Counted from the stretch's first letter, positions 288 through 17,937 are shown. The stretch: 19,605 nt of DNA from Candidatus Eiseniibacteriota bacterium (GCA_031364845.1 JANLWX010000012.1:1-19605), one strand, 5' to 3'. The notes: generated by a model not told the origin, from the letters alone. Translations and numbers: made by a program.

Positions 288-1733
288 CTACCAGCGCCCG
301 CGGCCTCTCCGATCGGTCGGCTGTGAACGGCGCGGTCCGCGTCCATGGACCGGTGCGGCCGGCTCGGACGGTGCGTGTCCCGGTCGCGACGTCGCGGCCG
401 GGCGATCGTCCGAACGGCCGGTCGAAGTGCTCGTGTGTCCGCTGTTGCGCGCGCGCGATTCGCCCGCGGGTGCATGTCCGCCGGATGCCGGCGCGCCGCT
501 GCGGCCGCGCGGTTCGGGACGCCCGTGCGGGGCGCGACCGCGAGGTTCGCGGTGGCGCTCCGGCGCTTCACCGCGCATCGACTGGCCCATCTCGGCGGGG
601 CGCATCTTGTAGTCGAAATCCGGCAGCACCACGCGCGGCAGCGTGCGGCCGAGCGCGCGCTCGATCGCGGCGAGGTCGTCGCGCTCTTCGGGCGACATGA
701 GCGTGAAGGCGTCACCGACCGCATCGACACGGCCGGTGCGGCCGATGCGATGGATGTAATCGTCGGGCGTGTGCGGCACGTCGTAGTTGATGACGTGCGA
801 AATGCCGCGCACGTCGATGCCGCGTGAGGCGATGTCGGTCGCCACCAGAATGCGCACACGGCCGCGCTTGAGATCGAGCAGTGCGCGCTCGCGCTGACCC
901 TGCGTGCGGTCACCGTGAAGTGCGGCGGTCGGATGGCCGCGCTTGACGAGCAGCCGCGCGAGGCGGTCGGCGCCGCGCTTGGTGCGCGTGAAGACGATCA
1001 CACTGTGCAACTCGATGCGGCTCAGCAGTTCGTCGAGCAGATCGACTTTGAGATTGCGCGACACCGGATAGATCGCCTGCGTGATGCCGGCGGCCGGTCG
1101 CGACTGCGGCGCAAGGTCGATGCGGACCGGATCGATCATCGATTCCTTGGCGACCGCGTTGAGCTCCTTGGGCATCGTCGCCGAGAACAGCAGCGTCTGG
1201 CGGTCGCGCGGCGGCGGCAGCAGCTTGAGGATGCGGCGGAGATCCGGAGCGAATCCCATGTCGACCATGCGATCGGCTTCGTCGAGCACCAGCACCTCGA
1301 CGTCGTCGAGGCTCACGGACTGGCGCGTGTTGAGGTCGAGCAGGCGGCCCGGGGTCGCGACCAGAAGATCGACACCTTCATGGCGCAGCATGCGCTCCTG
1401 CGGTCCGATCGGAACGCCTCCGTACACGGCACCGATGTTGAGGCGCGCGTATTTCGCGTAGGTCTTGCCGTTCGCGGTGATCTGCGCGGCGAGCTCGCGC
1501 GTCGGCGTCAGCACGAGCGCGCGCAGGCGGTGCGGTCCGTCGATCATCTGCGACAGGATCGGCAGAACGAATGCGGCCGTCTTGCCGGTGCCGGTCTGAG
1601 CGGCGCCGATCAGATCGTTGCCCTCGAGGATCACGGGGATCGCGCGGCGCTGAATGGGTGTGGGCTCGGTATAACCCGCGGAACGGACAGCTTTGAGAAT
1701 GAGGGGGTGGAGCCCCAGTTGCGCAAACGGCAT
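288..1733 (-). CDS. DEAD-box ATP-dependent RNA helicase (RhlE-like) with a basic low-complexity C-terminal tail
   Basis: Q motif PTPIQ, AQTGTGKT, PTRELA, TPGRL, DEAD, SAT, ASRGID and HRIGRTGR. Start chosen at MPFAQLGL (ATG 1733), which has GGGGAG upstream. Confidence 0.95.
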   Translation of the reverse strand: MPFAQLGLHPLILKAVRSAGYTEPTPIQRRAIPVILEGNDLIGAAQTGTGKTAAFVLPILSQMIDGPHRLRALVLTPTRELAAQITANGKTYAKYARLNIGAVYGGVPIGPQERMLRHEGVDLLVATPGRLLDLNTRQSVSLDDVEVLVLDEADRMVDMGFAPDLRRILKLLPPPRDRQTLLFSATMPKELNAVAKESMIDPVRIDLAPQSRPAAGITQAIYPVSRNLKVDLLDELLSRIELHSVIVFTRTKRGADRLARLLVKRGHPTAALHGDRTQGQRERALLDLKRGRVRILVATDIASRGIDVRGISHVINYDVPHTPDDYIHRIGRTGRVDAVGDAFTLMSPEERDDLAAIERALGRTLPRVVLPDFDYKMRPAEMGQSMRGEAPERHREPRGRAPHGRPEPRGRSGAPASGGHAPAGESRARNSGHTSTSTGRSDDRPAATSRPGHAPSEPAAPVHGRGPRRSQPTDRRGRGRW

Positions 1734-1985
1734 GACGTACTCCCCGGATGGAGGATGGACCGGGCGGAGCGGGCGTCGTGCCCGCGGGCAGGGTCTCAAG
1801 TAGTTGATAGCTCCGGCAGTATCGCTTACCACGGGACCGAAACCAATGACGGCGTGTCAGGTCGGCCGCAACTCGGTGACGGGGCGGGGGCGCCGGCCCG
1901 CGAACGAAGGGCCGCAACACTCTTCGCCCCACCCGCTCGAAAACCCGCAATCATTGAGAGATTCGAGACCGCGGAAAAAAATAGA

Positions 1986-2025
1986 TCGACACGGCTCACG
2001 AGTTCATCGTATATTGACGATGGAC
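1986..2025 (+). promoter_or_regulatory. Putative arsR promoter with an overlapping palindromic operator
   Basis: TCGACA (1986-1991) and TATATT (2010-2015) as -35/-10. The inverted repeat CATCGT-N6-ACGATG (2005-2022) overlaps the -10, as expected for ArsR/SmtB autorepression. Confidence 0.6.
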
Positions 2026-2040
2026 GATTTGGAGGAGCCA

Positions 2041-2358
2041 ATGAGCACATTGAAAACGCACACGATCGAGACCACCCCGAAGCCACTTTCGGAGATCCAC
2101 CACGAAATCGCGGGCTATGCCAAGGCACTCGGCCATCCCGCGCGCGTCGCCATCCTCCGGCTATTGATCGAGTGCGGCGACTGCATGTGCGGCAACATCG
2201 TCAGCCGAATTCCCCTCGCCCAGGCCACGGTCTCTCAGCACCTCAAGGTGCTGAAGGACGCGGGCCTGATTCGCGGCGAGATCGATCCTCCGCGCGTCTG
2301 CTACTGCGTCAATCCGGAAGCCGTGAAGCAGTTGAAGAAGCTGATTTCGAGTCTGTAA
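2041..2358 (+). CDS. arsR: ArsR/SmtB-family metalloregulator
   Basis: KALGHPARVAIL...CMCGNIV...LAQATVSQHLKVLKDAGLI winged HTH, with Cys clusters CGDCMC and CYC. SD GGAGGAG precedes ATG 2041, and the gene sits directly upstream of arsM. Confidence 0.92.
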   Translation: MSTLKTHTIETTPKPLSEIHHEIAGYAKALGHPARVAILRLLIECGDCMCGNIVSRIPLAQATVSQHLKVLKDAGLIRGEIDPPRVCYCVNPEAVKQLKKLISSL

Positions 2359-2408
2359 TGCACATTGATGCATATCATCAACCGACCCATCCTCAAGGAG
2401 CGACCATC

Positions 2409-3200
2409 ATGATCGATTCGAGCGAAACCAAAGACATCCGCGTGACCGTGCGCGAGAAGTACGGCGCCATCGCCGAGGGCAAAGAGTCCGGATGCTGCGG
2501 ATCCGGGTGCTGCGGCGGCGAGACCGGCGTGCTCGACCAGATCGGCTACAGCGCGGACCAGGCCGAAGCGGTTCCCGAGGGCTCGAACCTCGGACTCGGT
2601 TGCGGCAACCCGCTCGCCTTCGCCGATGCGAAGGCGGGCGAGACCGTCCTCGATCTCGGTTCGGGCGCCGGCATCGACTGCTTCCTCGCGTCCAAGGAAG
2701 TCGGGCCCCAGGGCAAAGTGATCGGCGTCGACATGACCCCGGCGATGCTCGAGCGCGCGCGCGCGAATGCGGCGAAGCACGCGTACACGAACGTCGAGTT
2801 CCGGCTCGGGGAGATCGAGCATCTTCCGGTCGCCGACGCCACCGTGGACCTCGTGATCTCGAACTGCGTCGTCAACCTGTCGCCCAACAAGCCGCAGGCG
2901 TTCCGGGAGGCGTTCCGCGCGCTCAAGCCGGGCGGGCGGCTGCTGGTGAGCGACCTCGTGCTCACCCGCGAGCTCGATCCCGAATTGCAGAAGAACGTCG
3001 ATCTCTACGTGGGCTGTGTCGCCGGCGCCTCGCTCAAGGACGAGTATCTGCGCCACATCCGCGAGGCGGGATTTTCTTCGGTCGAGATCGTGAACGAGAG
3101 CGGCTACGCCGTCGGGATCGAGAACCTGGCCGAAGGCAGCCGCGAGCGCGCGGCGTTCGACGCGGTGGTTTCAGTGAAGGTGCGGGCGTTCAAGCGCTGA
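2409..3200 (+). CDS. arsM: Arsenite S-adenosylmethionine methyltransferase
   Basis: LGLGCGNP, VLDLGSGAGID SAM-binding motif, GVDMT, ISNCVVNL, GCVAGA and N-terminal CC pairs. SD AAGGAG at 2395-2400. Confidence 0.93.
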   Translation: MIDSSETKDIRVTVREKYGAIAEGKESGCCGSGCCGGETGVLDQIGYSADQAEAVPEGSNLGLGCGNPLAFADAKAGETVLDLGSGAGIDCFLASKEVGPQGKVIGVDMTPAMLERARANAAKHAYTNVEFRLGEIEHLPVADATVDLVISNCVVNLSPNKPQAFREAFRALKPGGRLLVSDLVLTRELDPELQKNVDLYVGCVAGASLKDEYLRHIREAGFSSVEIVNESGYAVGIENLAEGSRERAAFDAVVSVKVRAFKR

Positions 3201-5591: not shown

Positions 5592-5706
5592 CTCCTACGG
5601 ATCCGTGCGCGGAATCGATCCGCGCGCCTTCACGGACCTGAGTTCATGCCCCGCGTGAAATTTTCCCGCGGGGTCGTGGACATTGCAGGAGTGGGCATCC
5701 ATGAAC
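5592..5706 (+). promoter_or_regulatory. Structured intercistronic leader with an anti-SD sequence
   Basis: CTCCT (5592-5596) is complementary to SD AGGAG (5687-5691). Two internal hairpins (5602-5636 and 5649-5673) bring them together, and GTTCAT (5642-5647) can pair with ATGAAC (5701-5706). Confidence 0.6.
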
Positions 5707-6888
5707 ACTTTCTTCTGGTGTCGGGGCGCATCACGCGCCGTCTTCGCAACGGCGGCTCTCGCATGCGCGATCGCATGGGGCGCCGAATGCGCCGGCGCCC
5801 AGCCGGCTTCCGATACCACGGGCACCGCGGAGCCGTTGGCGGTTGCTCCATCGGCATCTTCTGGCGCTGATGCCACGCAGTTTCCGAGCGGAGCGCCGCC
5901 GGCAGGGTCCTCGATCACCAACCCGGCAATCAGCGTGATCGGATGGTTCCAGGCCACGGCCGGTAACGATCCGGGTGCGGCGGAACACGCATTCGAACTG
6001 CACGAGGCCGAACTCGCGTTCCAGGCTGCGGTCGATCCGTTCACACGGGCGGACTTCTTCATGGCTGCGACTCCCGCCGGGCTCGAAGTCGAGGAGGGCT
6101 ATATCACGTGGCTCGCCCTCCCTTTCAACGCGCAGGCAAAGGTCGGAAAGTTTCGCGCGGACCTCGGCAAGTTCAACCGCACGCACGTCCCCGAAACCCC
6201 GTTCGCAGACCGGCCGCTCTCGGCGGCAGCATTCCTCGGCGACGAGGGCCTCGTGACCAGCGGGGTCGCGTTGTCGACGCTCATCTCCAACCCGTTGGGA
6301 CTCTACTGGGATGCCACCGCGAACATCGGCAACCTTCCGGACGCCGATGAGCAACCCGTATTCGAGCGCGCGACACGATCGGACGTACTCGCACTCGGCC
6401 GTACGAGCGTGTTCGTGCCGGCGGGCGCCGCGGCCGACTTCAACTTTGGCGTCTCCTACGCAAATGGTTCGAACCGCGAGGTCGCGCGCGAAAGCGAAGG
6501 CAATCGCGCTCAACTCGCCACGGCCGACGTCACGTTCCGCTGGAAGAACCCGAGGCGCAGCATCTATCGCTCGCTCGTGACTCAGGCAGAGTTCACAGGA
6601 CTTCAGGGCTCACGCGAGGGCGCCGAGCGCTACACCGGAGCGTTCGCGTACGCGCTCTACCAGTTCGCGCGTCAATGGAAGTGCGGCGGCCGCTACGACT
6701 GGACCGAGACTCCGGGCGTGCACGAGAACTCGACCGGAGCACTCGCGTTGCTGCAATACCAGCCGAGCGAATTCAGCACGATGAGCGTGCAGTTGCGCCG
6801 CGTGTGGGAACCCGGCGATCGCTCGCGTGACGCTGCGTTCTTCAAATGGACGTTCAATATCGGACCGCATGGCGCGCATCCCTACTGA
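5701..6888 (+). CDS. Putative outer-membrane beta-barrel associated with metal uptake, His-containing C-terminus
   Basis: Signal peptide, low-complexity linker, NPAISVIG, EAELAFQAAVDPF, VEEGY, GKFRADLGKFN.TH, amphipathic beta-strand pattern and C-terminal FNIGPHGAHPY. SD AGGAG before ATG 5701. Confidence 0.75.
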   Translation: MNTFFWCRGASRAVFATAALACAIAWGAECAGAQPASDTTGTAEPLAVAPSASSGADATQFPSGAPPAGSSITNPAISVIGWFQATAGNDPGAAEHAFELHEAELAFQAAVDPFTRADFFMAATPAGLEVEEGYITWLALPFNAQAKVGKFRADLGKFNRTHVPETPFADRPLSAAAFLGDEGLVTSGVALSTLISNPLGLYWDATANIGNLPDADEQPVFERATRSDVLALGRTSVFVPAGAAADFNFGVSYANGSNREVARESEGNRAQLATADVTFRWKNPRRSIYRSLVTQAEFTGLQGSREGAERYTGAFAYALYQFARQWKCGGRYDWTETPGVHENSTGALALLQYQPSEFSTMSVQLRRVWEPGDRSRDAAFFKWTFNIGPHGAHPY

Positions 6889-6939
6889 TGATCACGCGCG
6901 ATGCAATCGCGCGTTTCTCTTTGGAATAGGAGCCACACG

Positions 6940-7935
6940 ATGATCCCACTCTTCTCTTCAATCTGGTGCGCGTCGCAACTCACGCGGCGCAACGCGACCG
7001 CGGTGCTCCTCGGTTTCACGCTGTCCCTCGGCGCGCTGCCCGCCGGGCACGGCATGCTCGTCAGCCAGGCGCTCGCCGCGGCGAAACCGCTATCGGTCAT
7101 CACCACGACCGAGGATCTCGCGGCCATCGCGCGCGAAGTCGGCGGCGACCGCGTCAAGGTCACGTCGCTCGCGCGCGGATTTCAGGATCCGCACTTCGTT
7201 GACGCCAAGCCTTCGTACATGGTCGCGCTCAAGAACGCGGATCTGTTCGTCGAGGTCGGCCGCGAACTGGAAGTCGGATGGGCGCCCGGGCTGCTGAGTG
7301 GCGCGCGCAATCCGAAGATCCTCCCCGGCGCAACGGGATTCATCGATGCCTCGGCGCAGGTTCAGGTGATCGAAGTCCCGTCATCGGTGAGCCGTTCGCA
7401 GGGGGACGTCCATCCGTACGGCAACCCGCACTACTGGCTCGATCCCGCAAACGGCGCAGGGATTGCTCGCGCGATCCGTGACGGACTGAAGCGCGCATCG
7501 CCCGCCGATGCCGCGGGGTTCGATGCGCGCTGCGTCGACTTCGAGAAGCGCCTGGCCATCGCGGTCGTGCGCTGGAAACAGACAGCGAAATCGATCGGAC
7601 TCGAGGGCATGAAGGTCGTGACCTACCATCGCTCGTGGTCCTACTTCGCGCGCGCGTTCGGGCTCGACGTCGTCGACTTCGTCGAGCCGCGGCCGGGCAT
7701 CTCGCCGTCCCCGAACCATCTGCGCGAACTGGTCGGCCTGATGAAGGCGCAGAACGTGAAGCTGCTGGTGATGGAACCGTTCTTCGACCCGCGCCTGCCG
7801 CAGAAGATCGCAAAGGACACCGGTGCACCGCTGGTGATCGTTCCGACCTCGGTAGGCGCCGAAGAAGGCATCAAGACCTACTTCGACCTGTTCGACCATC
7901 AGCTCGAGCGGATCCGCCGGAGCCTGACGCGGTGA
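6940..7935 (+). CDS. Zn/Mn-type ABC substrate-binding protein (ZnuA/TroA, cluster A-I)
   Basis: QDPHF, GDVHPYGNPHYWLDP, TYHRSWSYF and EPRPGISPS motifs, plus an N-terminal signal region. SD AGGAG at 6928-6932. Confidence 0.92.
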   Translation: MIPLFSSIWCASQLTRRNATAVLLGFTLSLGALPAGHGMLVSQALAAAKPLSVITTTEDLAAIAREVGGDRVKVTSLARGFQDPHFVDAKPSYMVALKNADLFVEVGRELEVGWAPGLLSGARNPKILPGATGFIDASAQVQVIEVPSSVSRSQGDVHPYGNPHYWLDPANGAGIARAIRDGLKRASPADAAGFDARCVDFEKRLAIAVVRWKQTAKSIGLEGMKVVTYHRSWSYFARAFGLDVVDFVEPRPGISPSPNHLRELVGLMKAQNVKLLVMEPFFDPRLPQKIAKDTGAPLVIVPTSVGAEEGIKTYFDLFDHQLERIRRSLTR

Positions 7936-7987
7936 CGCGCGGATCGTCCACACACACGCGCCGCCACCGTCACCGCGGAGGCCGGCC

Positions 7988-8824
7988 ATGATCGAGCAGC
8001 TTCCGTTTCTCATCTGGCCGCTGCTCGGGCTCTTGTGCATAGCCGCGATTCACGTCTACCTCGGACTTCACGTGGTCGAGCGTGGCGTGATCTTCGTGGA
8101 CCTGTCGCTCGCGCAGATGGCGGTGCTGGGTGCCGCGATCGCGTCACTGTGGGGATTCGAGCCGCACGATCCCGCGACGTTCGGCTTCTCGCTGGCGTTC
8201 ACGGTGATCGGGGCGACCGTGTTTTCGATGACGCGCACCGAAAAGTCGCGCGTGCCGCAGGAGGCGATCATCGGCATCGTGTACGCGGTGGCGGCGGCGG
8301 CGACCGTGCTGATCCTCAACAACGCCCCGCATGGGGCCGAGCACATCCGCGACGTGCTGGTCGGCCAGTTGCTCGCGGTCGAAGCGAAGGATGTGCTGCG
8401 GCTTGCGGTGATCTACGCGGTGCTCGGCGCGCTCCACCTGTGGTGGGCGAAGCGCCTGCTGCTGGTCTCGCGCGATCCGGTAGCCGCGAAGGCGCAGGGC
8501 CTGCGCGTCAAGCTGTGGGATTTTCTGTTCTACCTGACGTTCGGATTGACCGTGGCCGTGTCGGTCGAGCTGGGCGGCGTGCTGGTCGTGTTCAGCTACC
8601 TGATCGTTCCGAGCGTGTGCGCGATGCTGCTCGCCGACAGCGTTCGCGCGCGGCTCGTGATCGGCTGGACCATCGCGGCGATCGGGAGTGCCCTCGGAAT
8701 GCTGGTGTCGGTGTGGCTGAGCGCGCCTCCGGGTGCGAGCGTGGTGTGTGCATTCGGTGCGCTGCTGATCGTTACGGCGCTGGTGCGTCCGCGCGTGAGC
8801 GCGGCAACGGCCGGGCCCGCCTGA
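7988..8824 (+). CDS. Metal ABC transporter permease (ABC-3, ZnuB/MntB-like)
   Basis: Multi-TM protein with LGLHVVERGVIFVDLSLAQ, EAIIGIVY, SRDPVAAKAQG and GGVLVVFSYLIVPS. SD GGAGG at 7977-7981. Confidence 0.92.
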   Translation: MIEQLPFLIWPLLGLLCIAAIHVYLGLHVVERGVIFVDLSLAQMAVLGAAIASLWGFEPHDPATFGFSLAFTVIGATVFSMTRTEKSRVPQEAIIGIVYAVAAAATVLILNNAPHGAEHIRDVLVGQLLAVEAKDVLRLAVIYAVLGALHLWWAKRLLLVSRDPVAAKAQGLRVKLWDFLFYLTFGLTVAVSVELGGVLVVFSYLIVPSVCAMLLADSVRARLVIGWTIAAIGSALGMLVSVWLSAPPGASVVCAFGALLIVTALVRPRVSAATAGPA

Positions 8825-8893
8825 TCGCCGGCGGTGGAGACTGTCTCGGGTTCGGCGATCGCGGCGGCGATCCTGTAGGATCGCGGTCGCCGC
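8823..8893. other. Two adjacent GC-rich stem-loops after the permease
   Basis: GATCGCCG (8823-8830)/CGGCGATC (8853-8860) and GCGATCCT (8867-8874)/AGGATCGC (8877-8884), the latter flanked by GCGGCG/CGCCGC. No U-tract. Confidence 0.4.
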
Positions 8894-8939
8894 ATGACCT
8901 CATGGATGAAGTCTCCCTTCGCACGAAGGCAGGGTTGCC

Positions 8940-9725
8940 GTGCGTCGTCTCGACCGCGTTTCGATTGCGAGCCTGGCCGCTCTGGTGATGATGTCGGGTA
9001 CGGCGTCAGGCGCGCCTGTACCTGGCTCGGAGAGCACCAGCTCTCCCGACTCCGCGTCCTACGCCGATCGCATCGCCGAAAACGCGTTCCCGGTCACGCT
9101 CGCCAGTTTCTCGACGACGCTGGCCGGCAGCGTGCCCGGCCGCACGCACAACATCCGTCTTGCATGCCGCGAACTCGACGGAGTCGTGATGGCGCCGGGC
9201 GACGTGCTGTCGTTCAACCGCCGCGTCGGACCGCGCACCGCGGAGCGCGGCTACTGCGATGCGCCGGTGATCCTGCGCGAGAGCCGGCAGCTGCAGCTGG
9301 GTGGGGGCATCTGCCAGGTGGCCTCGACGCTGTTCGTCGCCGGACTGGTGTCCGGGCTCTCGGTCGTCAAGCGCCACCGACACTCGAATCCGGTCGACTA
9401 CATTCCGCTCGGACAGGATGCGACGATCTCGTGGGGCGTGAAAGATCTCCAACTTCGCAACGATCTCGATCAGCCGGTGCGCGTGCACCTCGAAGTGCTG
9501 GGCGCCACACTGACGGCCCGCATCGAGGCGCAGGCGCCGCTGCGAGAGAGCTACGAGTTGTACTCCGACGTGCGCGAATCCGACGATGCGCTTGCGGGCA
9601 CACCGGGCCGCGAGATCGAGCTCTATCGCATCCGCCGCGTCGACGGCGAAGAGCGCGACCGCGAGTTGGTGCATCGCGACGTGTTCCCGATCGCGCGAGT
9701 GCGCGAGCTCGAGGCCGGGCGATGA
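8940..9725 (+). CDS. VanW-domain exported protein
   Basis: Signal peptide, RTHNIRLA, PGDVLSFNRRVGPRTAERGY, GGGICQVASTLF, RHRHS and GQDATIS; short G5-like tail. Confidence 0.9.
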   Translation: MRRLDRVSIASLAALVMMSGTASGAPVPGSESTSSPDSASYADRIAENAFPVTLASFSTTLAGSVPGRTHNIRLACRELDGVVMAPGDVLSFNRRVGPRTAERGYCDAPVILRESRQLQLGGGICQVASTLFVAGLVSGLSVVKRHRHSNPVDYIPLGQDATISWGVKDLQLRNDLDQPVRVHLEVLGATLTARIEAQAPLRESYELYSDVRESDDALAGTPGREIELYRIRRVDGEERDRELVHRDVFPIARVRELEAGR

Positions 9726-10408
9726 GGCAGGCGTTCGTTGCCGGCGTCGCGGCCGTGTTCCTCGCGTGCATGACGTCCGCGCGCGTGCCGGCCGCGATCG
9801 ACGATCCGCTCGAAGCGTTCCGCGCGTTCGCGCGCACGCCCGCGGCGCAGGAGCTGATCGCCGAGGCGCGCGCGGCGATGACCGCGCACTTCGAGGGCGG
9901 CGACGATGGCACGATGGCGGGCGGGCAGACGAGCGACGAATCGATCCCGTGGCCCGCCGCACCCGCTGCCGTCTACGTGAGCCTCGCGAACGGCCGTGCC
10001 ACGCGCGCCTGCGTCGGCAGCGCCGCACCCGGTGGAACGCTGCGGGCCACGGTGCGCGATCTCGCCGTGCAGGTGCTCCATTCGGATCGTCGCCGCCTGC
10101 CGGTGCGCCGCGAGGAACTCGACGGCCTGCGTGTGGTGGTGTCGCTCGCCGGCCCGGGAACGCCGGTCGCCGATCCGATGTCGGTCGCACTCGCGCGCGA
10201 AGGCCTGCTGGTGCGCAGCCCGCTCGGCAGCGTGGCGTTCCTGCCGGGCGAAGCACGCACGGTGACGTATGCGCTGCGCGAGGCGCGCCGCATCGGCGTG
10301 CTCGCGGATGCGCGCGATGCGACGTTCGAGCGATTCGACGTGATCGCGATTTCCGAGCCCTCACCGCGCCGCGAGCGTGCGATGCCGCGCGCGCATGACG
10401 AACCCTGA
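9722..10408 (+). CDS. AMMECR1-domain protein with an N-terminal signal peptide
   Basis: AVYVSL...TRACVGS (compare canonical FVTL...LRGCIG), DRRRLPVRREEL..LRVVVS and EGLLV...FLPGE. ATGA overlap with the vanW stop. Confidence 0.72.
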   Translation: MRQAFVAGVAAVFLACMTSARVPAAIDDPLEAFRAFARTPAAQELIAEARAAMTAHFEGGDDGTMAGGQTSDESIPWPAAPAAVYVSLANGRATRACVGSAAPGGTLRATVRDLAVQVLHSDRRRLPVRREELDGLRVVVSLAGPGTPVADPMSVALAREGLLVRSPLGSVAFLPGEARTVTYALREARRIGVLADARDATFERFDVIAISEPSPRRERAMPRAHDEP

Positions 10409-10454
10409 TTCCCTTGCGAACGTCCGCATGAACCCCTGAGCCCTGGAGCCCCCG

Positions 10455-13400
10455 ATGCCGCAGTCCCGAATCGAGCGATGCCGGTCCCCACATTTCACCG
10501 CCTTCGCGCGCACGCTGCTCCTCGCGTGGGCCGTGCTGGTGGTTCCGTTCGCGTGGTCCGCCCACGCCGAGACCAGCCGCATGAGCGGCCGGGTGATCGA
10601 CTCCGATTCGCAGAAGCCGGTCGCCAACGCCGACGTCGAACTGGCGAATACGTCGGGCGGCCAGGGATTCCATCGTGCGCGCACCAATGCGCGCGGTGAA
10701 TTCGCGATCGAAGGCATCTCATCCGACCGCTACTACACGCTCACCGTCGGTGCGGTGGGCTTCGCCGACTTCGTAATCGGAGGCTGGCAGATTCCGGCCG
10801 CACAGCGCGCGGCGGAGCTCGTGGTCCCGCTCGATCGCGCAGGCGTGCTGGTGGTGCGCGCGCTGCGCACCGACGGCAAGACGCCGGTCGCCAACGCGCG
10901 GGTTCAGTTGCAGAGCGAGCGCGGCTCGACGTGGTGGGAAGGCTACCGCCCGCCGCCCGCGCCGCGCTACACCGACAACGGCGGCTCGGTGCGCTTCGAA
11001 GGTCTGACGGCCGGATTCTGGACCGCGGTCGTCGAAGGCGACGGCCTGCGCACCGCCGAAGCGCGCCGCATCGCGGTGCGCCGCGGCGAGACGACACAGG
11101 CGCCGGTCAAACTCGGAAAGCCGGGATCATTGTCGGGGCTCGTGCGGCTCGCCGACGGCACCGGCGTGCCGGGCGTGACGATCACCGCGCGCGGACCTTC
11201 GGAGCAGGTCGCCACCAGCGGCACCGACGGCACGTTCGCGCTGAGCGATCTCGCGGCCGGAAAGATCCGCATCGAAACGAGTCACGAAGGCTTCGAGCCG
11301 TTCACCGTGCGCGAGCCGGTCGTCGTGCGCGAAGGCGAAGCGCGAGAGATCGCGGCGATCACGCTCAAGCCCAAGCCCGCGGAGTTCGCGTTCGTGCTCG
11401 AGCGCGAGGCGTTCCTGCCGGATGTGGTGCCGAAGCTCGGCCTGCGTTCGTTCCGCACCGGGCCGATCGATCTTGCGCTGTACGTGATTCCGACGTCCGT
11501 GATTCTCAATCCCGCCGGCGACTTCCGCCGCTACGCGTTCACGAACGACTCTACCGGGCTCGTATCGCCCGAGCGCTGGCAGCACGCGCCCGCGGCGGGG
11601 CCGGAGTGGTCGTGGCGCGAAGAGGAGTTGTCGCTGCCGCACGCGCTGCCGCCGGGTGCTTATCTCCTCAAGGGCCGCGCGGGCGCGATCGAGCGGCGCG
11701 TGATCTTCTTCGTCACCGACATGGGATTGCTGGTCAAGCGCTCGGCAACGCAGGTGTGGGTTTCCGCGGCGGCGCTCAAAGGCGGCAAGCCGGTTCCCGG
11801 TGCGAGCGTGTACGTGATCCAAAAGCCGGTGCCGCCCGCGGGCGAAGGCCAGGGCTGGAGCACCGCGATCGCGGAGCCGCGCCGCGATGCCGTGCGCACC
11901 GATGCCGACGGCATCGCGAGCATCACGGATACCGGCAAGGGCGCGCGCCTGCGGATCGTCGCGGTGAGTGAGACGCAGGGACTCGCGGTGGTCGACGCGC
12001 CGATCGCGCCCGCGGCCGAACGGGGCGGAGATCAGAGCTACCTCTACACCGATCGGCCGATCTATCGACCGGGACACGCGCTCCACTGGAAGCTGTTCGC
12101 GCGCAAGGCGACCGCTGCGGGCGGCTGGGCGCTGCCCGATGCCACGGCCGCGACCGTGGTGCTCGAAGCACCCGACGGCACGACGCTCGGCGGTGACGCC
12201 ACACCGCTGTCCGCGCGCGGCTCGTCCGATGGAACGATCACACTGCCCGCCGAGGCGGCGCTCGGCGACTGGACGCTGCGCGCCAGCATCGGCGGTTCGA
12301 CGACGACCGCGACCGTCGCCGTGCAGGACTATCGCAAGCCCGAATTCCAGGTCGAGGTCACCCCGGATCGCGCGGTGTACGTGAACGGCGACGAGGTGCG
12401 CTTCCGGATCGCGGCATCGTATTTCTTCGGCGCTCCGGTGTTCGGGGCCACCGTGCGCTACAACCTGTTCGAAGCGCGCATCGACGCCGCCGGCGACGAT
12501 CCGGACTCTGAGTTCTCGGAAGGCGGCGCGCGCGGATACGGCCGCGTGCTCAAGACCGGGGAGACCCGCACCGATCTCGACGGCCGCGCCGAAGTCTCGC
12601 TGGTGCCGGAACGTGTGCCTTACGACCGCCGCCTCACGCTCGAAGTCGAAGTCGTCGATCCCTCGCAGCGCGTGGTGAACGCGCGCGGTGAAGCGATCAT
12701 GGGCCGCGGACTGTTCACGCTCGCGGTGCATCCGGTCACTGCGGTGGTGGCGATCGGAAGGCCGATGTCGATCGAAGTGACCGCGCGCGATCACGCCGAT
12801 CGCCCGGTGGTGGCCGCGGTGACGGTCGAGATCGATCAGGAGGCGTGGAACCCGCTCGAGCGCCGCTACACGCGCTCGACCCGTCCGCTCGCCTCGCAGG
12901 TCGTCACCACCGACTCGCTCGGCCGCGGCCGCGTGACGCTGACGCCGTCACCGGCGCGTGGCGGGCGGTTGATCCTGCGCGCGCGCGCCGAAGACGCCAA
13001 GGGCAACCGCATCACCGCCGAGTCGTCGGCGTGGGCGCACGATCCGTCGGTGACTTCGTATGCCTATCGCTATCCCGCGCTCGAAGCGTTCGCCGACAAG
13101 GCGCGCTACCGCACCGGCGACACGGCGCGCGTGCTGGTGAACACCGACGTCCGCAACGCGACGGTGCTCGTCACCGTCGAAGGGCGCGATTTGTTCGACC
13201 GGCGCGTGGTGCGCCTGATCGGCAACAGCGCACTGGTCCCTATTCCGATCCGTGCCGAGTGGGCGCCCAATGTGTTCGTGGCGATCCACGTGCGCCGCGG
13301 CATGGAAGTGCACTCACGCACGATCGAGCTTCCGGTCGATGCGATGCGCCACGATCTCAAGATCGAACTCACGCCCGATCGCGAACGCGCGCGGCCCGGC

Positions 13401-15758
13401 GATTCGACGACCGTGCGCGTGCGCACCACCGACGGAAACGGACGGCCGGTCGCGGCCGAAGTGTCGCTCGGGGTGGTCGACGAAGCGATCTACTCCATCC
13501 GCGCCGACGACACGCCCGATCCGCATTCGGTGTTCTACGGCCGCCGCCCGAACTGGGTGACGACGGTGGTCTCGTTTCCGGTGCTCTACTACGGCGGCGT
13601 GAGCAAGGGCGATCGCGATGAAGTGCGCCGCAACTTCCGCGACGTCGCGCACTGGGAACCCGCGATTCTCACGAGTGCCGCGGGGACCGCGAGTGTGGGA
13701 TTTCGCTATCCCGATAACCTCACGACGTGGCGCATGACGAGCCGCGGCGCGACGCTCGACACGCGCGTCGGCAAGGCGGTCGTGAAGACGCTGGTGACCA
13801 AGGACGTCGTCTCGCGCCTCGCGGGCCCGCGGTTCTTCGTCGCAGGCGATCGCGCGAGCCTCGTGTCGGTGGTGACCAACCGCAGCGAAGGGCCGCTCAC
13901 CGGTGTCGAGGAGTCGATCGAAGTCACGGGTGCAGTACTCGAAGGTCCGACGACCGCGAAGACGCAGATCGCAAAACAGGGCGAGTCGCGCAACGAGTGG
14001 CAGGTGCGGATTCCCGAGCCGGCGCGCGATGCGGAGTCGAAGGACGCGGTGTTCACGTTCCGAGCGCGCGCCAAAGCGGATTCGGACGCGCTCGAAGTGC
14101 GCGTGCCGGTGCGGGCGCGTGCCGTGCCGTTGCTCTCGCACGGAGCCGGCGTCGCGCCCGGAGCCAGCTCGACGCTCAACGTTTCGCTTCCTGGCGATCT
14201 CGTGCGCGCCGGCAGCCGGGTGACGATCGACATCGCGCCCTCACCCGCCGCGGTCGCGCTCACGGCCGTGCAGGAGCTGCTCGATTATCCCTACGGCTGC
14301 ACGGAGCAGACGGCGAACGCAATCCTTCCGGCCGCCGCCATGGCTTCGGCGCTGCGGAAGGCTTCGGTCACAGCGCCCGGCTTCGAGAACCCGTCCGCCA
14401 GAATCGCGGCGCATCTTCAGCGGCTCGCCGCCCTGCACAAACCCGACGGCGGATGGGGCTGGTGGCCGGAAGGCGACATGGACCCGTATCTCACCGTGCT
14501 CGCGATCGACGCGATCGCGCGCGCGACGCTCGCCGGCATCGCTCCCGAAGGCACCGACGGTGCGATCGACCCGGCGGTCTACGTGCTGCCGCGCGTGTTC
14601 GCCGAGGTGCGCACGCTCGACGGCGAGGCGTACGTGATCGCGCACCTCGCTTCGATGACGAAGCTCAAGAACGCGAAGGATCGTTTTCCCGGTGTGCGCG
14701 AGCGGCTCGACGAGATGGCGCTCGCGGTGCGCTCGGCGCCCGACCAACTCGGCAACGCCGGGCTGGCACTCGCGACGCGCGCGCATGCCGAACTCGGCAT
14801 GACGGCCGAAGCCGCGATCCTCGCCGACAAGCTGATCGCGCGCGGCGTGAAGAGCGGCGGACTCCATTGGGAAGCCGATCGCGAAGCGTACGATTGGTGG
14901 GGCGACGACATTTCGAACACCGGCCTGGCGCTGGACGCGCTGCTCGCCGTGCGCCCCGACGACCGGCGCGCAACCGAGATCGTGCAGTGGCTGGTGCGCC
15001 ACCGCACCGGTCCCTGGTGGCGCTCGACGCGCGTGTCGGCGCCGGTCGCGGCGGCACTCGCGAACTTCGCGGGTGCGCACGCGTCCGAGATGAAGGCGCA
15101 GGGCCAGGTGCGCGCGGAGTGGAACGGCGCGCGCGTGATCGACGCGACGATCGGCGCCGCCGAGATCTTCGGCCGACCGCTGCGCGCGACCGTCGACGGC
15201 GCGCGACTGCGCGCGGGCGACAACCGGCTCGTGATCACGACCGACGGCGGCATCACCGCCTACTGGTCATGGAACGCGCGCGCGCTGGTGCCGAGCCCGG
15301 GGCCGGTTCAGAAGCCGGGAGTGCTGGCGGTGACGCGCGAGTATCTGCGCGCCGAACGCACGACCGACCGCCGCGGTCGCCCGCGCTGGCTCACGACGCC
15401 GCTCACGCCGACCGACGCGGTGCGCGTCGGTGAAGCGGTGCTGGTGCGGCTCACGCTGCGCGCGACGCGCACCCTGCGGCACCTGATGCTCGAGGATCCG
15501 CGGCTTGCGGGCTTCGAGATCGATCAACTGCTGCCGGACGGCGCTGAGTGGCCCTACGGCACGCACGCCGAAGGCCGCGACGATCGCGCGGTGTTCTTCC
15601 TCGAGAATCTCGCGGAAGGCGAGACGACGGTCGAGTATCTGATCCGCCCCGAGATCGGCGGCCGCTTCATAGCACTTCCCGCGACCGCGAGCGGCATGTA
15701 CGACCCGGACCTGCTCACGCGCAGCGGCGAAGAGCAGCTCACAGTCAAAGGCAGATAG
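10455..15758 (+). CDS. Bacterial alpha-2-macroglobulin with N-terminal carboxypeptidase-regulatory-like repeats
   Basis: YTDRPIYRPG (MG2), YRKPEF, VDEAIY, RRNFRDVAHW, PDNLTTW, thioester YPYGCTEQ (Cys codon 14298-14300), DGGWGWW and C-terminal PATASGMYDP. Confidence 0.95.
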   Translation: MPQSRIERCRSPHFTAFARTLLLAWAVLVVPFAWSAHAETSRMSGRVIDSDSQKPVANADVELANTSGGQGFHRARTNARGEFAIEGISSDRYYTLTVGAVGFADFVIGGWQIPAAQRAAELVVPLDRAGVLVVRALRTDGKTPVANARVQLQSERGSTWWEGYRPPPAPRYTDNGGSVRFEGLTAGFWTAVVEGDGLRTAEARRIAVRRGETTQAPVKLGKPGSLSGLVRLADGTGVPGVTITARGPSEQVATSGTDGTFALSDLAAGKIRIETSHEGFEPFTVREPVVVREGEAREIAAITLKPKPAEFAFVLEREAFLPDVVPKLGLRSFRTGPIDLALYVIPTSVILNPAGDFRRYAFTNDSTGLVSPERWQHAPAAGPEWSWREEELSLPHALPPGAYLLKGRAGAIERRVIFFVTDMGLLVKRSATQVWVSAAALKGGKPVPGASVYVIQKPVPPAGEGQGWSTAIAEPRRDAVRTDADGIASITDTGKGARLRIVAVSETQGLAVVDAPIAPAAERGGDQSYLYTDRPIYRPGHALHWKLFARKATAAGGWALPDATAATVVLEAPDGTTLGGDATPLSARGSSDGTITLPAEAALGDWTLRASIGGSTTTATVAVQDYRKPEFQVEVTPDRAVYVNGDEVRFRIAASYFFGAPVFGATVRYNLFEARIDAAGDDPDSEFSEGGARGYGRVLKTGETRTDLDGRAEVSLVPERVPYDRRLTLEVEVVDPSQRVVNARGEAIMGRGLFTLAVHPVTAVVAIGRPMSIEVTARDHADRPVVAAVTVEIDQEAWNPLERRYTRSTRPLASQVVTTDSLGRGRVTLTPSPARGGRLILRARAEDAKGNRITAESSAWAHDPSVTSYAYRYPALEAFADKARYRTGDTARVLVNTDVRNATVLVTVEGRDLFDRRVVRLIGNSALVPIPIRAEWAPNVFVAIHVRRGMEVHSRTIELPVDAMRHDLKIELTPDRERARPGDSTTVRVRTTDGNGRPVAAEVSLGVVDEAIYSIRADDTPDPHSVFYGRRPNWVTTVVSFPVLYYGGVSKGDRDEVRRNFRDVAHWEPAILTSAAGTASVGFRYPDNLTTWRMTSRGATLDTRVGKAVVKTLVTKDVVSRLAGPRFFVAGDRASLVSVVTNRSEGPLTGVEESIEVTGAVLEGPTTAKTQIAKQGESRNEWQVRIPEPARDAESKDAVFTFRARAKADSDALEVRVPVRARAVPLLSHGAGVAPGASSTLNVSLPGDLVRAGSRVTIDIAPSPAAVALTAVQELLDYPYGCTEQTANAILPAAAMASALRKASVTAPGFENPSARIAAHLQRLAALHKPDGGWGWWPEGDMDPYLTVLAIDAIARATLAGIAPEGTDGAIDPAVYVLPRVFAEVRTLDGEAYVIAHLASMTKLKNAKDRFPGVRERLDEMALAVRSAPDQLGNAGLALATRAHAELGMTAEAAILADKLIARGVKSGGLHWEADREAYDWWGDDISNTGLALDALLAVRPDDRRATEIVQWLVRHRTGPWWRSTRVSAPVAAALANFAGAHASEMKAQGQVRAEWNGARVIDATIGAAEIFGRPLRATVDGARLRAGDNRLVITTDGGITAYWSWNARALVPSPGPVQKPGVLAVTREYLRAERTTDRRGRPRWLTTPLTPTDAVRVGEAVLVRLTLRATRTLRHLMLEDPRLAGFEIDQLLPDGAEWPYGTHAEGRDDRAVFFLENLAEGETTVEYLIRPEIGGRFIALPATASGMYDPDLLTRSGEEQLTVKGR

Positions 15759-15880
15759 CAGGCTGCGGAGAAGCCCGAGTGCAAGGCGCGAGGAAGCGAG
15801 GAGCGAGACGTGATTACAGAATTCTTCGCGTCGACGAGCGCCCGAGCAACGCAGCAATCGGGCTTCTCCGCAGCCTGCTA
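15756..15880. mobile_element. MITE-like 125-bp element with 23-bp perfect terminal inverted repeats
   Basis: TAGCAGGCTGCGGAGAAGCCCGA (15756-15778) is the exact reverse complement of 15858-15880. TA at both ends, non-coding interior. Confidence 0.7.
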
Positions 15881-16498
15881 CGCCGCCTTGATCCGCTCCT
15901 GCGCCGGCATGTTGGCGCGGCGCCACGTCATCCACATGGTGTAGCGGTTCTCGAAGTCGTTGGCCGCGGTCTCCGCGGTCGCCGGCATGAACACGCCCAT
16001 CGGGCGCTCCGTGCAGGCGCGCACGTAGAGATCGAGCAGTCCGCATCCGGTAGACCGCGTGACCGTGTGTCCGGGCGATCCATCGAAACCCGATCCGTTG
16101 AGCGTCGTGAACGTGGTGCGATTGCCTCCGGGATAGCTGCACGTGAACTCGAACCACGATCCGGCGAGCGTGTGATTCCAGATTGCGCAGTGCATCGACT
16201 GCGCGCGGTTCGCGAGCAGCCGTACTTTGGCGTCCGGCATGCCGTCGATCACGAATGTGCCTGCGTCTTCGAATCCTTCGCGGCACAACTGGGCGGCCAT
16301 GTTCGACATGGCTTCGGGAACGAACGAGACGGTTTCGTCGATGCGCATCAGACGCACACGATCGGGCATGCGCGAGACATCCTGATCGTCGAGGTCGAAG
16401 TGGCCTTCGGCCGGTGTTGCGGACGAACGGGTGCGCAGGAACACGTACAGCAGCGCCGAGAACACGGAAGTCGAAGCGAGAATGAGCAGCAGGTTCAT
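15878..16498 (-). CDS. Hypothetical protein with an N-terminal membrane anchor
   Basis: SD GAGGAG, then MNLLLILASTSVFSALLYVFL, then a globular-looking domain with normal codon bias. Confidence 0.7.
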   Translation of the reverse strand: MNLLLILASTSVFSALLYVFLRTRSSATPAEGHFDLDDQDVSRMPDRVRLMRIDETVSFVPEAMSNMAAQLCREGFEDAGTFVIDGMPDAKVRLLANRAQSMHCAIWNHTLAGSWFEFTCSYPGGNRTTFTTLNGSGFDGSPGHTVTRSTGCGLLDLYVRACTERPMGVFMPATAETAANDFENRYTMWMTWRRANMPAQERIKAA

Positions 16499-16641
16499 GG
16501 GCTGGATCTCCTCGACAGGGAGTTGGGCGCCGCGGAATCCTCGAAAGCCGGCCGGAGACCGCGAGCGGGTGATCCTCGGAGTCATCGGCACTCGCGCGCG
16601 GGAGCATGAGGCCGATTCGAAGGCCCCTGACGGTGCCGTGA

Positions 16642-16679
16642 CCGGCGGACCTTCAGCGATGCGGCGTCAGATCCGCCGG
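16642..16679 (-). terminator. Stem-loop immediately after the stop of the 16681-17790 gene
   Basis: CCGGCGGA (16642-16649)/TCCGCCGG (16672-16679). No U-tract, so termination is uncertain. Confidence 0.3.
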
Positions 16680-16680
16680 G

Positions 16681-17790
16681 TTACGCAGCGCGGCGCAGGT
16701 TGCGCCAGCGCGCCGGGCGGCCCTGCTCGCTCCACACTGCGCGCGAATGCGGCAGGAACTCGATGCAGCGCTGGGATTCGGTTGCCGCGTCGTTCGCCTC
16801 ACTGCACACGGGCTCCGCCGAAGCTCCGGGGTCGCGTGCAGGGTCGATTTCCCCACCCGCCCCGGGATCCTCTTGCGCGCGCTCGAGGGTCAGCGCCCAG
16901 CCGGTGTTGGTATCGCGTTCCAGCCGGCGCGCCAGATGGAGCGCGCGCGCATACGTCATCACGACCCCGCCCAGCACGACAACCTGGAGGATGACCAGCG
17001 GCCAGCGCGTGCGCAGGTACACCGAGACATCCTGCGGGCTGAAGACGAACGCGACCGCCCATACACTGAGCCACACCGCCCACAACGCGATCACCATACC
17101 CGGACGGCGCAAGTGCCGGATGTGCGCGCCGATCTCGGCGCACTCGTGATGGTTGAGCGCGCGACGCATGAAGCGCGCGCGCGGTTCGCCGTCGAGCCAC
17201 GCCATTGCCGGCGGCATCTCGACGCGCAAGGCGTACGACGGGCCGGCGGCGACTTCGGCGATGGTCACCGGCACGAACGCCGGCACGGGGCCCGCTCCGC
17301 GCAGCATGACGCAGCTCGATGCCGGCAGAACTTCGATCCACTGCGGCGCGCCGGCCACCGGAGACAGCACGCGCGCGTCGAGCAATTGCTTCTGCTCCTC
17401 GTCGAGCACGTCGCCGGCTTCGATCGCGCCCTCGAAGCACTCGACCTCTCCGGTTTCGAGATCCGCGAGATGGCCGCTGCGTTCGCGCCACGCGCGGCGC
17501 GCGCGCGTGACGAGGACCACCGGAATCGCGACGGCAATCAGCACGAGCGCGATCACCACGGTCACGTCGAGCCAACGGACACCGAGCGACTCCGGCAGCA
17601 GAAACATCGTGAGGAACGGGACGATCAGTGCGACCGGCGTGCACGCGATCGCGATCCACATCCGGAGCCCGAGCGCGCGTGCCTGTCCTTCGAGCCCCGC
17701 GCGTTCATCTGCTTGCATCGGGCGTGCTGCGGTGAACCGAAGTCCTGCACACCAACGTTCGGTTCGAAGTTCGTCCAGGATGTCGGGCAT
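16681..17790 (-). CDS. Hypothetical 4-TM membrane protein with an internal duplication
   Basis: Two pairs of hydrophobic helices, each followed by D..TG and IE(V/F)LPxS motifs. Start is uncertain (ATG 17790 chosen). Confidence 0.7.
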   Translation of the reverse strand: MPDILDELRTERWCAGLRFTAARPMQADERAGLEGQARALGLRMWIAIACTPVALIVPFLTMFLLPESLGVRWLDVTVVIALVLIAVAIPVVLVTRARRAWRERSGHLADLETGEVECFEGAIEAGDVLDEEQKQLLDARVLSPVAGAPQWIEVLPASSCVMLRGAGPVPAFVPVTIAEVAAGPSYALRVEMPPAMAWLDGEPRARFMRRALNHHECAEIGAHIRHLRRPGMVIALWAVWLSVWAVAFVFSPQDVSVYLRTRWPLVILQVVVLGGVVMTYARALHLARRLERDTNTGWALTLERAQEDPGAGGEIDPARDPGASAEPVCSEANDAATESQRCIEFLPHSRAVWSEQGRPARWRNLRRAA

Positions 17791-17937
17791 GCTCCGGGTA
17801 TCGGCGATACCGGCGAAGCCGCGAGCGGTATCTTGCACGCGCAGGACGTGCAGAGTGCGCGGAACCGACGCGGGGGGCAGGGGTATTTATTGTGTCATCA
17901 CGACTGAATGACGGCATCCCGCTCCGTGGAGCAGACT

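Follow-up and report, generated by a model that had tools for sequence, protein, structure and literature searches.

Two types of operon are known for bacterial alpha-2-macroglobulins (A2Ms) (PMC5764988). A2Ms of Type I use a thioester to trap proteases and are co-encoded with the penicillin-binding protein PBP1c, a pairing for which a joint 'defence and repair' role has been put forward as a hypothesis; in Type II, accessory proteins of Pseudomonas aeruginosa form a complex with their A2M (PMC5764988). Here we analyse a different arrangement, found in a 19,605-nt stretch of a Candidatus Eiseniibacteriota bacterium genome (GCA_031364845.1, JANLWX010000012.1:1-19605, referred to in full as the window), in which the gene for a thioester A2M is preceded by genes for a VanW-domain protein and an AMMECR1-like protein. 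On balance we lean towards the view that this trio is a conserved operon of exported proteins and that it forms a periplasmic trap-and-repair unit, a variant of the Type I system.

All three genes lie on the plus strand. The first (8940–9725; GTG start, 261 amino acids (aa)) encodes a predicted exported L,D-transpeptidase (LDT) of the VanW family. The second (9722–10408; ATG start, 228 aa) encodes the AMMECR1-like protein, which would be exported judging by its signal-like N-terminus, and the third (10455–15758; ATG start, 1767 aa) encodes the A2M. The VanW and AMMECR1-like genes meet at cgATGAgg, where the ATG of the second (9722–9724) overlaps the TGA of the first (9723–9725), and a 46-nt spacer (10409–10454) precedes the A2M gene. 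In relatives this second junction ranges from a 4-nt overlap to about 60 nt. Each N-terminus runs from a positive stretch through a hydrophobic stretch to a small-residue cleavage-like site, as do those of the orthologues; in VanW the signal-like region comprises residues 1–24. Signal peptides and lipoboxes, here and below, were judged by eye and without a predictor. The first-pass annotation, made from the sequence alone, had described three co-directional genes with signal peptides joined by an ATGA overlap and a 46-nt gap, and the open reading frames (ORFs), the Pfam matches and the junction sequence agree with that description, as do the signals to the eye.

The window has a GC content of about 68%, and its ORF list is full of spurious frames. 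One of these, a 504-aa ORF at 8894–10408, was rejected as a gene because it is a high-GC open frame spanning two real ones. The same caution applies to overlapping starts. In four aligned relatives the start that overlaps the VanW stop by 4 nt leads straight into a signal peptide, and a 4-nt overlapping AMMECR1 start is possible in 19 of the 20 genome-contig loci that have both genes. In these counts, starts overlapping the preceding stop were picked whenever present, and three of the four bases before TGA yield one by chance. Because chance starts are so frequent, the overlap counts are telling only in cases where a signal peptide follows immediately from the start. The genome that contains the window (4.6 Mb in 233 contigs, 97.08% complete) has one VanW, one AMMECR1 and one bMG10 match, all within the trio, and three LDTs of the YkuD type outside it.

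The A2M has three N-terminal CarboxypepD_reg stretches followed by bMG3, MG2, A2M_BRD, A2M, TED_complement and bMG10 domains. It belongs to the thioester kind, since a GCTEQ motif is present (14295–14309, plus strand; Cys1282 and Gln1285), and all 18 full-length trio A2Ms have C[TS]EQ; seven further rows of the alignment are truncated or frameshifted ahead of the motif. The best solved relatives are Escherichia coli YfhM/ECAM (5a42, E 6.7e-34) and Salmonella A2M (4u48, E 2.4e-29). With the Type I systems (yfhM/ECAM-pbpC; Sa-A2M) the trio shares the CXEQ motif, the MG, bait region, TED and bMG10 domains, and the pairing of an exported A2M with a co-encoded enzyme of peptidoglycan cross-linking, which in the trio is a predicted one. 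In contrast to Type I, this partner is a predicted VanW L,D-transpeptidase and not the class A PBP1c, an exported AMMECR1-like protein is added, the partners are encoded upstream of the A2M, and the A2M itself lacks a lipobox and carries the three CarboxypepD_reg domains. The Type II systems (P. aeruginosa magABCDEF; E. coli yfaA-yfaT-yfaS-yfaQ-yfaP) likewise place an A2M in a multi-gene operon with periplasmic accessories. However, Type II A2Ms lack the CXEQ motif that the trio A2M has, and the mag operon comprises six genes as opposed to three, with the trio partners matching only VanW and AMMECR1.

The VanW protein matches PF04294 over profile positions 2–129 of 130 (E 8.1e-45, 151.9 bits against a cut-off of 27), and its orthologues are 50–73% identical to it. 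The first-pass annotation had treated VanW as a cell-wall-associated domain of unknown function. This is out of date, as a 2024 study established VanW domains as L,D-transpeptidases with a Cys-His-Asp triad (PMC11348318), which makes the idea of a cell-wall partner more concrete. In Clostridioides difficile, Ldt4 and Ldt5 form 3-3 cross-links, require the conserved cysteine and are inhibited by meropenem (PMC11348318). The active-site region of the window protein (9300–9446, plus strand) includes the sequence GGGICQ and the residues Cys125 (9312–9314), His148 (9381–9383), Asp160 (9417–9419) and Asp169 (9444–9446). These four residues are invariant in 20 trio VanW proteins and also in a 10-row alignment that includes seven VanW proteins of the PG4/G5 type from other sources. 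The window protein therefore resembles Ldt4 and Ldt5 in its full-length VanW domain and in the invariant Cys, His and two Asp residues. It differs from them in lacking PG_binding_4 and a transmembrane anchor, in having a C-terminal tail that is G5-like at sub-threshold level only, and in coming from a presumably diderm organism in which it would be dedicated to an A2M operon. The family is described as mostly Gram-positive and scarce elsewhere, with many members lacking a known role (PMC11348318). No solved structure was matched by the sequence of the window VanW protein.

The AMMECR1-like protein is assigned to its family by Pfam (PF01871, E 3.2e-15, 56.5 bits against a cut-off of 25) and by a profile search of the PDB, which returned 1zq7 (E 1.9e-10) and 1vaj (E 3.7e-9). 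Its AlphaFold2 model has a mean pLDDT of 86.5, and with this predicted structure Foldseek recovered only 1zq7, 1vaj and 1wsc at E≤0.001 (probability 1.00), with TM-scores of 0.56/0.62 to 1vaj. All three are archaeal AMMECR1 structures and none has a known function. AMMECR1 structures were solved in 2005 and the chemistry of the family, which includes a human disease gene, has been unassigned since. The motifs RGChG and DxRa were defined for the family, and an exposed catalytic cysteine predicted, by Balaji and Aravind (PMC2034487). In the window protein the first motif appears as R-A-C-V-G (10004–10018, plus strand), which aligns with RGCIG in the PDB alignments; R, C and G are kept, the second residue is Ala and not Gly, and Cys97 is the predicted reactive thiol. 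None of the 20 orthologues aligned differs at R95, A96, C97 or G99. At the DxRa position the protein reads D122-R-R124-R within DRRR (10085–10096, plus strand), where D and R are invariant and the aromatic position is occupied by Arg or His in the trio proteins. A third conserved element, LPGEART, is encoded at 10241–10261 on the plus strand.

Compared with described members of the AMMECR1 family (PH0010, 1VAJ; MM0484, 1ZQ7; ST0229, 1WSC; human AMMECR1), the trio protein has the same two-lobed fold in its model, the RxChG cysteine and the D-x-R motif. It differs in its signal peptide, where the family member is taken to be cytoplasmic, in the Ala of the first motif and in the Arg or His that replaces the aromatic residue of DxRa. 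Its genomic context differs as well: prokaryotic AMMECR1 genes are associated with a radical SAM enzyme and a Memo-like ring-opening dioxygenase (PMC2034487), whereas the neighbours in trio loci are VanW and A2M.

A profile built from 20 AMMECR1-like proteins was searched against 1.84 billion cluster representatives and gave 4772 matches at E≤1e-3, 515 at E≤1e-10 and 29 at E≤1e-30. The 27 second-tier matches that were inspected have 205–227 aa and a hydrophobic N-terminus. In a 28-row alignment of divergent exported AMMECR1 proteins the Cys of R-x-C-x-G is invariant, and the Asp of D-x-R and the P-x-E..T motif (LPGEAxT) are shared. In a protein atlas, similar AMMECR1 clusters have Spirochaetota or Thermodesulfobacteriota as their commonest phylum, an observation that serves as a lead only. 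Two apparent fusions were rejected. In P0124, a database protein annotated with both VanW and AMMECR1 domains, an Arg/Pro-rich stretch takes the place of the VanW C-terminus and the AMMECR1 signal peptide is internal, so that it was taken for a frameshift read-through spanning the 4-nt overlap and not for a VanW–AMMECR1 fusion. At locus L034 a stop codon lies between the AMMECR1 and A2M genes.

The gene order extends well beyond the window. When 41 relatives were searched with the AMMECR1-like protein, 13 genomes gave matches, six of them close (E 1.9e-21 or better). Three of these six have complete and ordered VanW, AMMECR1 and A2M genes, and the other three have the same order cut by a contig end. 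The seven weak-match loci have neither a VanW nor an A2M neighbour and are probably ordinary AMMECR1 genes. A scan of genome contigs yielded 26 loci whose records carry the labels Eisenbacteria, 'uncultured bacterium' or 'bacterium', except for one labelled Omnitrophota; several of these are the same contigs as the relatives' loci. Twenty have VanW as the immediate upstream gene, and the other six start 94 nt or less from a contig edge. A2M follows directly in 25, and the one remaining contig breaks off 64 nt past the AMMECR1 gene. Identities to the window proteins drop to 44–54% across these loci. Flanking genes are kept only in subsets, which indicates that the trio itself is the unit. An inositol monophosphatase gene upstream and a PLD-like gene downstream occur in 6–10 loci; these were considered as further members and rejected, being local synteny that is missing from the window. 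Two contigs of one Eisenbacteria metagenome-assembled genome (L039 and L048) carry two trio copies, each nearest a different subgroup and both with a frame change in the A2M gene, which could reflect paralogy, mixed strains in the bin or an assembly error.

Metagenome contigs scanned with four low-GC divergent AMMECR1 proteins provided 24 loci, 20 of them with a strong AMMECR1 match and some of these at 31–58% GC. VanW is upstream in 17 of these 20, two start at a contig edge, and the last (L101) is arranged otherwise; A2M follows in 19, the twentieth locus being cut off by a contig edge. The four loci with weaker matches have neither neighbour. In one locus of 46% GC (L081) the genes for VanW, AMMECR1 and A2M are followed by those for SpoIID and a penicillin-binding protein (PBP) transpeptidase. 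Its first junction is ATGA, its A2M carries GCMEQ, and its trio proteins share 37%, 27% and 31% identity with those of the window. Two loci of 57–58% GC (L095 and L096) have the trio with GCVEQ. L101 (31% GC) reads PBP transpeptidase, SpoIID, AMMECR1, A2M, with no VanW seen in the partial contig. The SpoIID and small PBP transpeptidase genes are on the same strand as the others, after A2M in L081 (8347–10610) and before AMMECR1 in L101 (232–2106), and they are absent from the window trio. In both gene orders it is the AMMECR1 gene, not VanW, that directly adjoins A2M. Conservation beyond a single genome, on which the first-pass annotation had made its proposal depend, is thus seen in six of six close relatives, in the 26 genome loci and in the divergent metagenome loci, with the order kept as far as the contigs reach.

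The same annotation had characterised the operon as one without pbpC. No match to BiPBP_C (PF06832), the C-terminal domain of PBP1c, was found in the genome that contains the window, in a search that worked on E. coli, Caulobacter and Bacteroides controls. A sample of the phylum, comprising 151 genomes and four queries, extended this result. The PBP1c C-terminal domain is over cut-off in 19 genomes, trio-type AMMECR1 is present at E≤1e-15 in 26, bMG10 in 57 and VanW in 29. VanW and AMMECR1-like proteins occur together in 25 of the 30 genomes that have either (23 of family f1 and two of f10). Of the other five, one has a weak AMMECR1 match only and four have VanW only, one being cut by a contig end and three having divergent VanWs. 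None of the 25 genomes with both has pbpC over cut-off, although two have sub-threshold matches.

Most pbpC genes of the phylum lie beside an A2M gene of their own, 16 of the 19 matches being within about 3 kb of a bMG10 match. These pbpC-linked A2Ms are 23–30% identical to the window A2M and carry GC[LI]EQ. A quick FastTree phylogeny, in which long branches were flagged, separates all 19 trio A2Ms from the pbpC-linked ones by a branch whose SH-like support is 100. The phylum has two thioester A2M systems that are mutually exclusive in the genomes searched. A third kind of A2M, of about 2030–2090 aa with [ED]CSEQ, was seen at three loci of the phylum (L074, G002:C4; L075, G102:C12; L076, G120:C21). 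The stretches retrieved around them contain no match to VanW, AMMECR1 or pbpC; genome G002 also has the trio.

We consider a trap-and-repair unit the more probable function of the trio because LDTs are linked to envelope stress (PMC12729407), wall enzymes occur in the divergent loci, and the trio and pbpC exclude each other. According to this reading the A2M would capture invading proteases, VanW would take the place of PBP1c and mend damaged peptidoglycan with new 3-3 (L,D) cross-links, and the AMMECR1-like protein may be a cysteine-dependent accessory acting on or with the A2M. The last assignment is made from position: in either gene order, AMMECR1 sits immediately next to A2M. We infer from gene content and conservation that the three proteins work together, that the window VanW acts on peptidoglycan and that it functionally replaces PBP1c; any role of the AMMECR1-like protein is put forward on the same footing. 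The proposal in the first-pass annotation of a different A2M system, with VanW as the cell-wall partner, gains support from the conservation of the trio and its complementarity with pbpC. One correction to it is that the gene staying beside A2M in both orders is AMMECR1 and not VanW.

Several points weigh against this interpretation. The idea of trap and repair is unproven even for E. coli yfhM-pbpC, and the activities of the trio proteins, including the role of the AMMECR1-like protein, are predictions from genomics. The trio occurs almost only in families f1 and f10, and pbpC almost only in others; because the split follows family lines, the exclusion represents few evolutionary events and not 44 independent ones. 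The trio is also found in only about 40% of f1 genomes and is therefore accessory. The Pfam search found no PG_binding_4 domain and no membrane anchor in the VanW protein, and a scan of 7900–16800 was uninformative, with no promoter-like sites and four terminator-like sites against 3.4 expected. In the published assay of VanW proteins from other organisms, three of seven were active and four of seven showed no LDT activity (PMC11348318), so that activity of the window protein should not be assumed.

An alternative is that the AMMECR1-like protein, perhaps together with VanW, forms, protects or re-forms the Cys-Gln thioester of the A2M in the oxidising periplasm, or transfers its acyl group, an explanation that we regard as unlikely. 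Stated more broadly, and in our judgement with an equally low probability, all three would be thiol or thioester proteins of a single protein-chemistry pathway unrelated to wall repair. Its most specific form, in which exported AMMECR1 would be a thiol enzyme that acts on the A2M thioester to make, guard or pass on the Cys-Gln bond, is similarly improbable. AMMECR1 is directly upstream of A2M in every locus examined, including L101 with no VanW upstream, its cysteine is kept in 28 of 28 divergent exported homologues, and this is the residue for which catalysis was predicted (PMC2034487). However, ECAM and Sa-A2M form their thioesters without an AMMECR1 partner (PMC5764988), peptidoglycan activity of VanW has been demonstrated in other bacteria, and the SpoIID and PBP transpeptidase genes of the divergent loci point to the wall.

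Less likely still, VanW might attach the A2M, or its complexes with proteases, covalently to peptidoglycan, thereby replacing the lipid anchor of Type I. The trio A2Ms would suit such a mechanism in having Sec-type signals without a lipobox. In the window protein the cleavage site at the end of the signal, ...FAWSAHA/ETS, has no cysteine, and no lipobox cysteine was seen in this or in 24 other trio A2M N-termini, whereas at least four of eight pbpC-linked A2Ms of the phylum have a lipobox-like motif and ECAM is recorded as a lipoprotein. LDTs are also known to anchor proteins to peptidoglycan, the YkuD-type enzymes attaching Braun's lipoprotein and outer-membrane proteins (PMC12729407). Protein attachment has been shown for YkuD enzymes only, however, and not for VanW, and no conserved acceptor residue was found in the trio A2Ms. 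A C-terminal Lys was considered as the acceptor and rejected, as the C-termini vary (R, P or K). The mature N-terminus goes straight into the first domain. Finally, it is very improbable that three unrelated envelope genes merely travel together: the linkage is known here from genomes alone, and high-GC genomes yield many apparent overlapping starts, but the order is kept at 27–37% protein identity and at 46% versus 70% GC, VanW and AMMECR1 keep company in most genomes that have either, each of the three occurs once in its own genome and only in the trio, and the flanking genes are not conserved.

The trio is a third conserved bacterial A2M partner set that extends across deeply divergent lineages. 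The first-pass annotation did not know the combination as described, and no description of VanW with AMMECR1 and A2M was found in the literature either, in a search that went largely without subscription journals and supplements. The A2M literature searched showed only the two known operon types. AMMECR1 with macroglobulin was not found in a bacterial context, the co-mentions being human and mouse expression and proteomics studies as judged by title or the start of the abstract, and AMMECR1 with peptidoglycan returned nothing on the trio. The available text of the paper that identified VanW activity (PMC11348318) and that of a 2025 review of LDTs (PMC12729407) make no mention of macroglobulin or AMMECR1.

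The trio places a predicted VanW-type L,D-transpeptidase of a presumably diderm organism in a defined functional context. It also brings AMMECR1 together with two proteins whose thiol and thioester chemistry is well defined, so that its function is testable with three recombinant proteins. If AMMECR1 did act on the thioester, this would be the first biochemical function for the family, in a third and widespread class of A2M system. The switch between pbpC and VanW with AMMECR1 among the families of one phylum offers a natural experiment on the trap-and-repair hypothesis.

Outside the trio, the surroundings in the window are less conserved. Genes for ZnuA and an ABC-3 permease (6901–8824) are on the same strand and end 115 nt upstream of the trio, an association found only in the window and in a genome of the same genus. 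Downstream, ORFs at 15878–16591 and 16681–17838 are both on the minus strand, and the unit is therefore taken to end with A2M. Together with an ORF at 5683–6888 (plus strand) they gave no Pfam match; because the two minus-strand ORFs are 48–53% identical to ORFs of the same-genus genome, they are probably real genes with no assigned family. Near the start of the window, a 761-aa frame (915–3200, plus strand) has a methyltransferase domain only at residues 573–719 and overlaps a DEAD-box helicase gene on the opposite strand (288–1832, minus strand), so that the actual methyltransferase gene is likely to be far shorter than this ORF.

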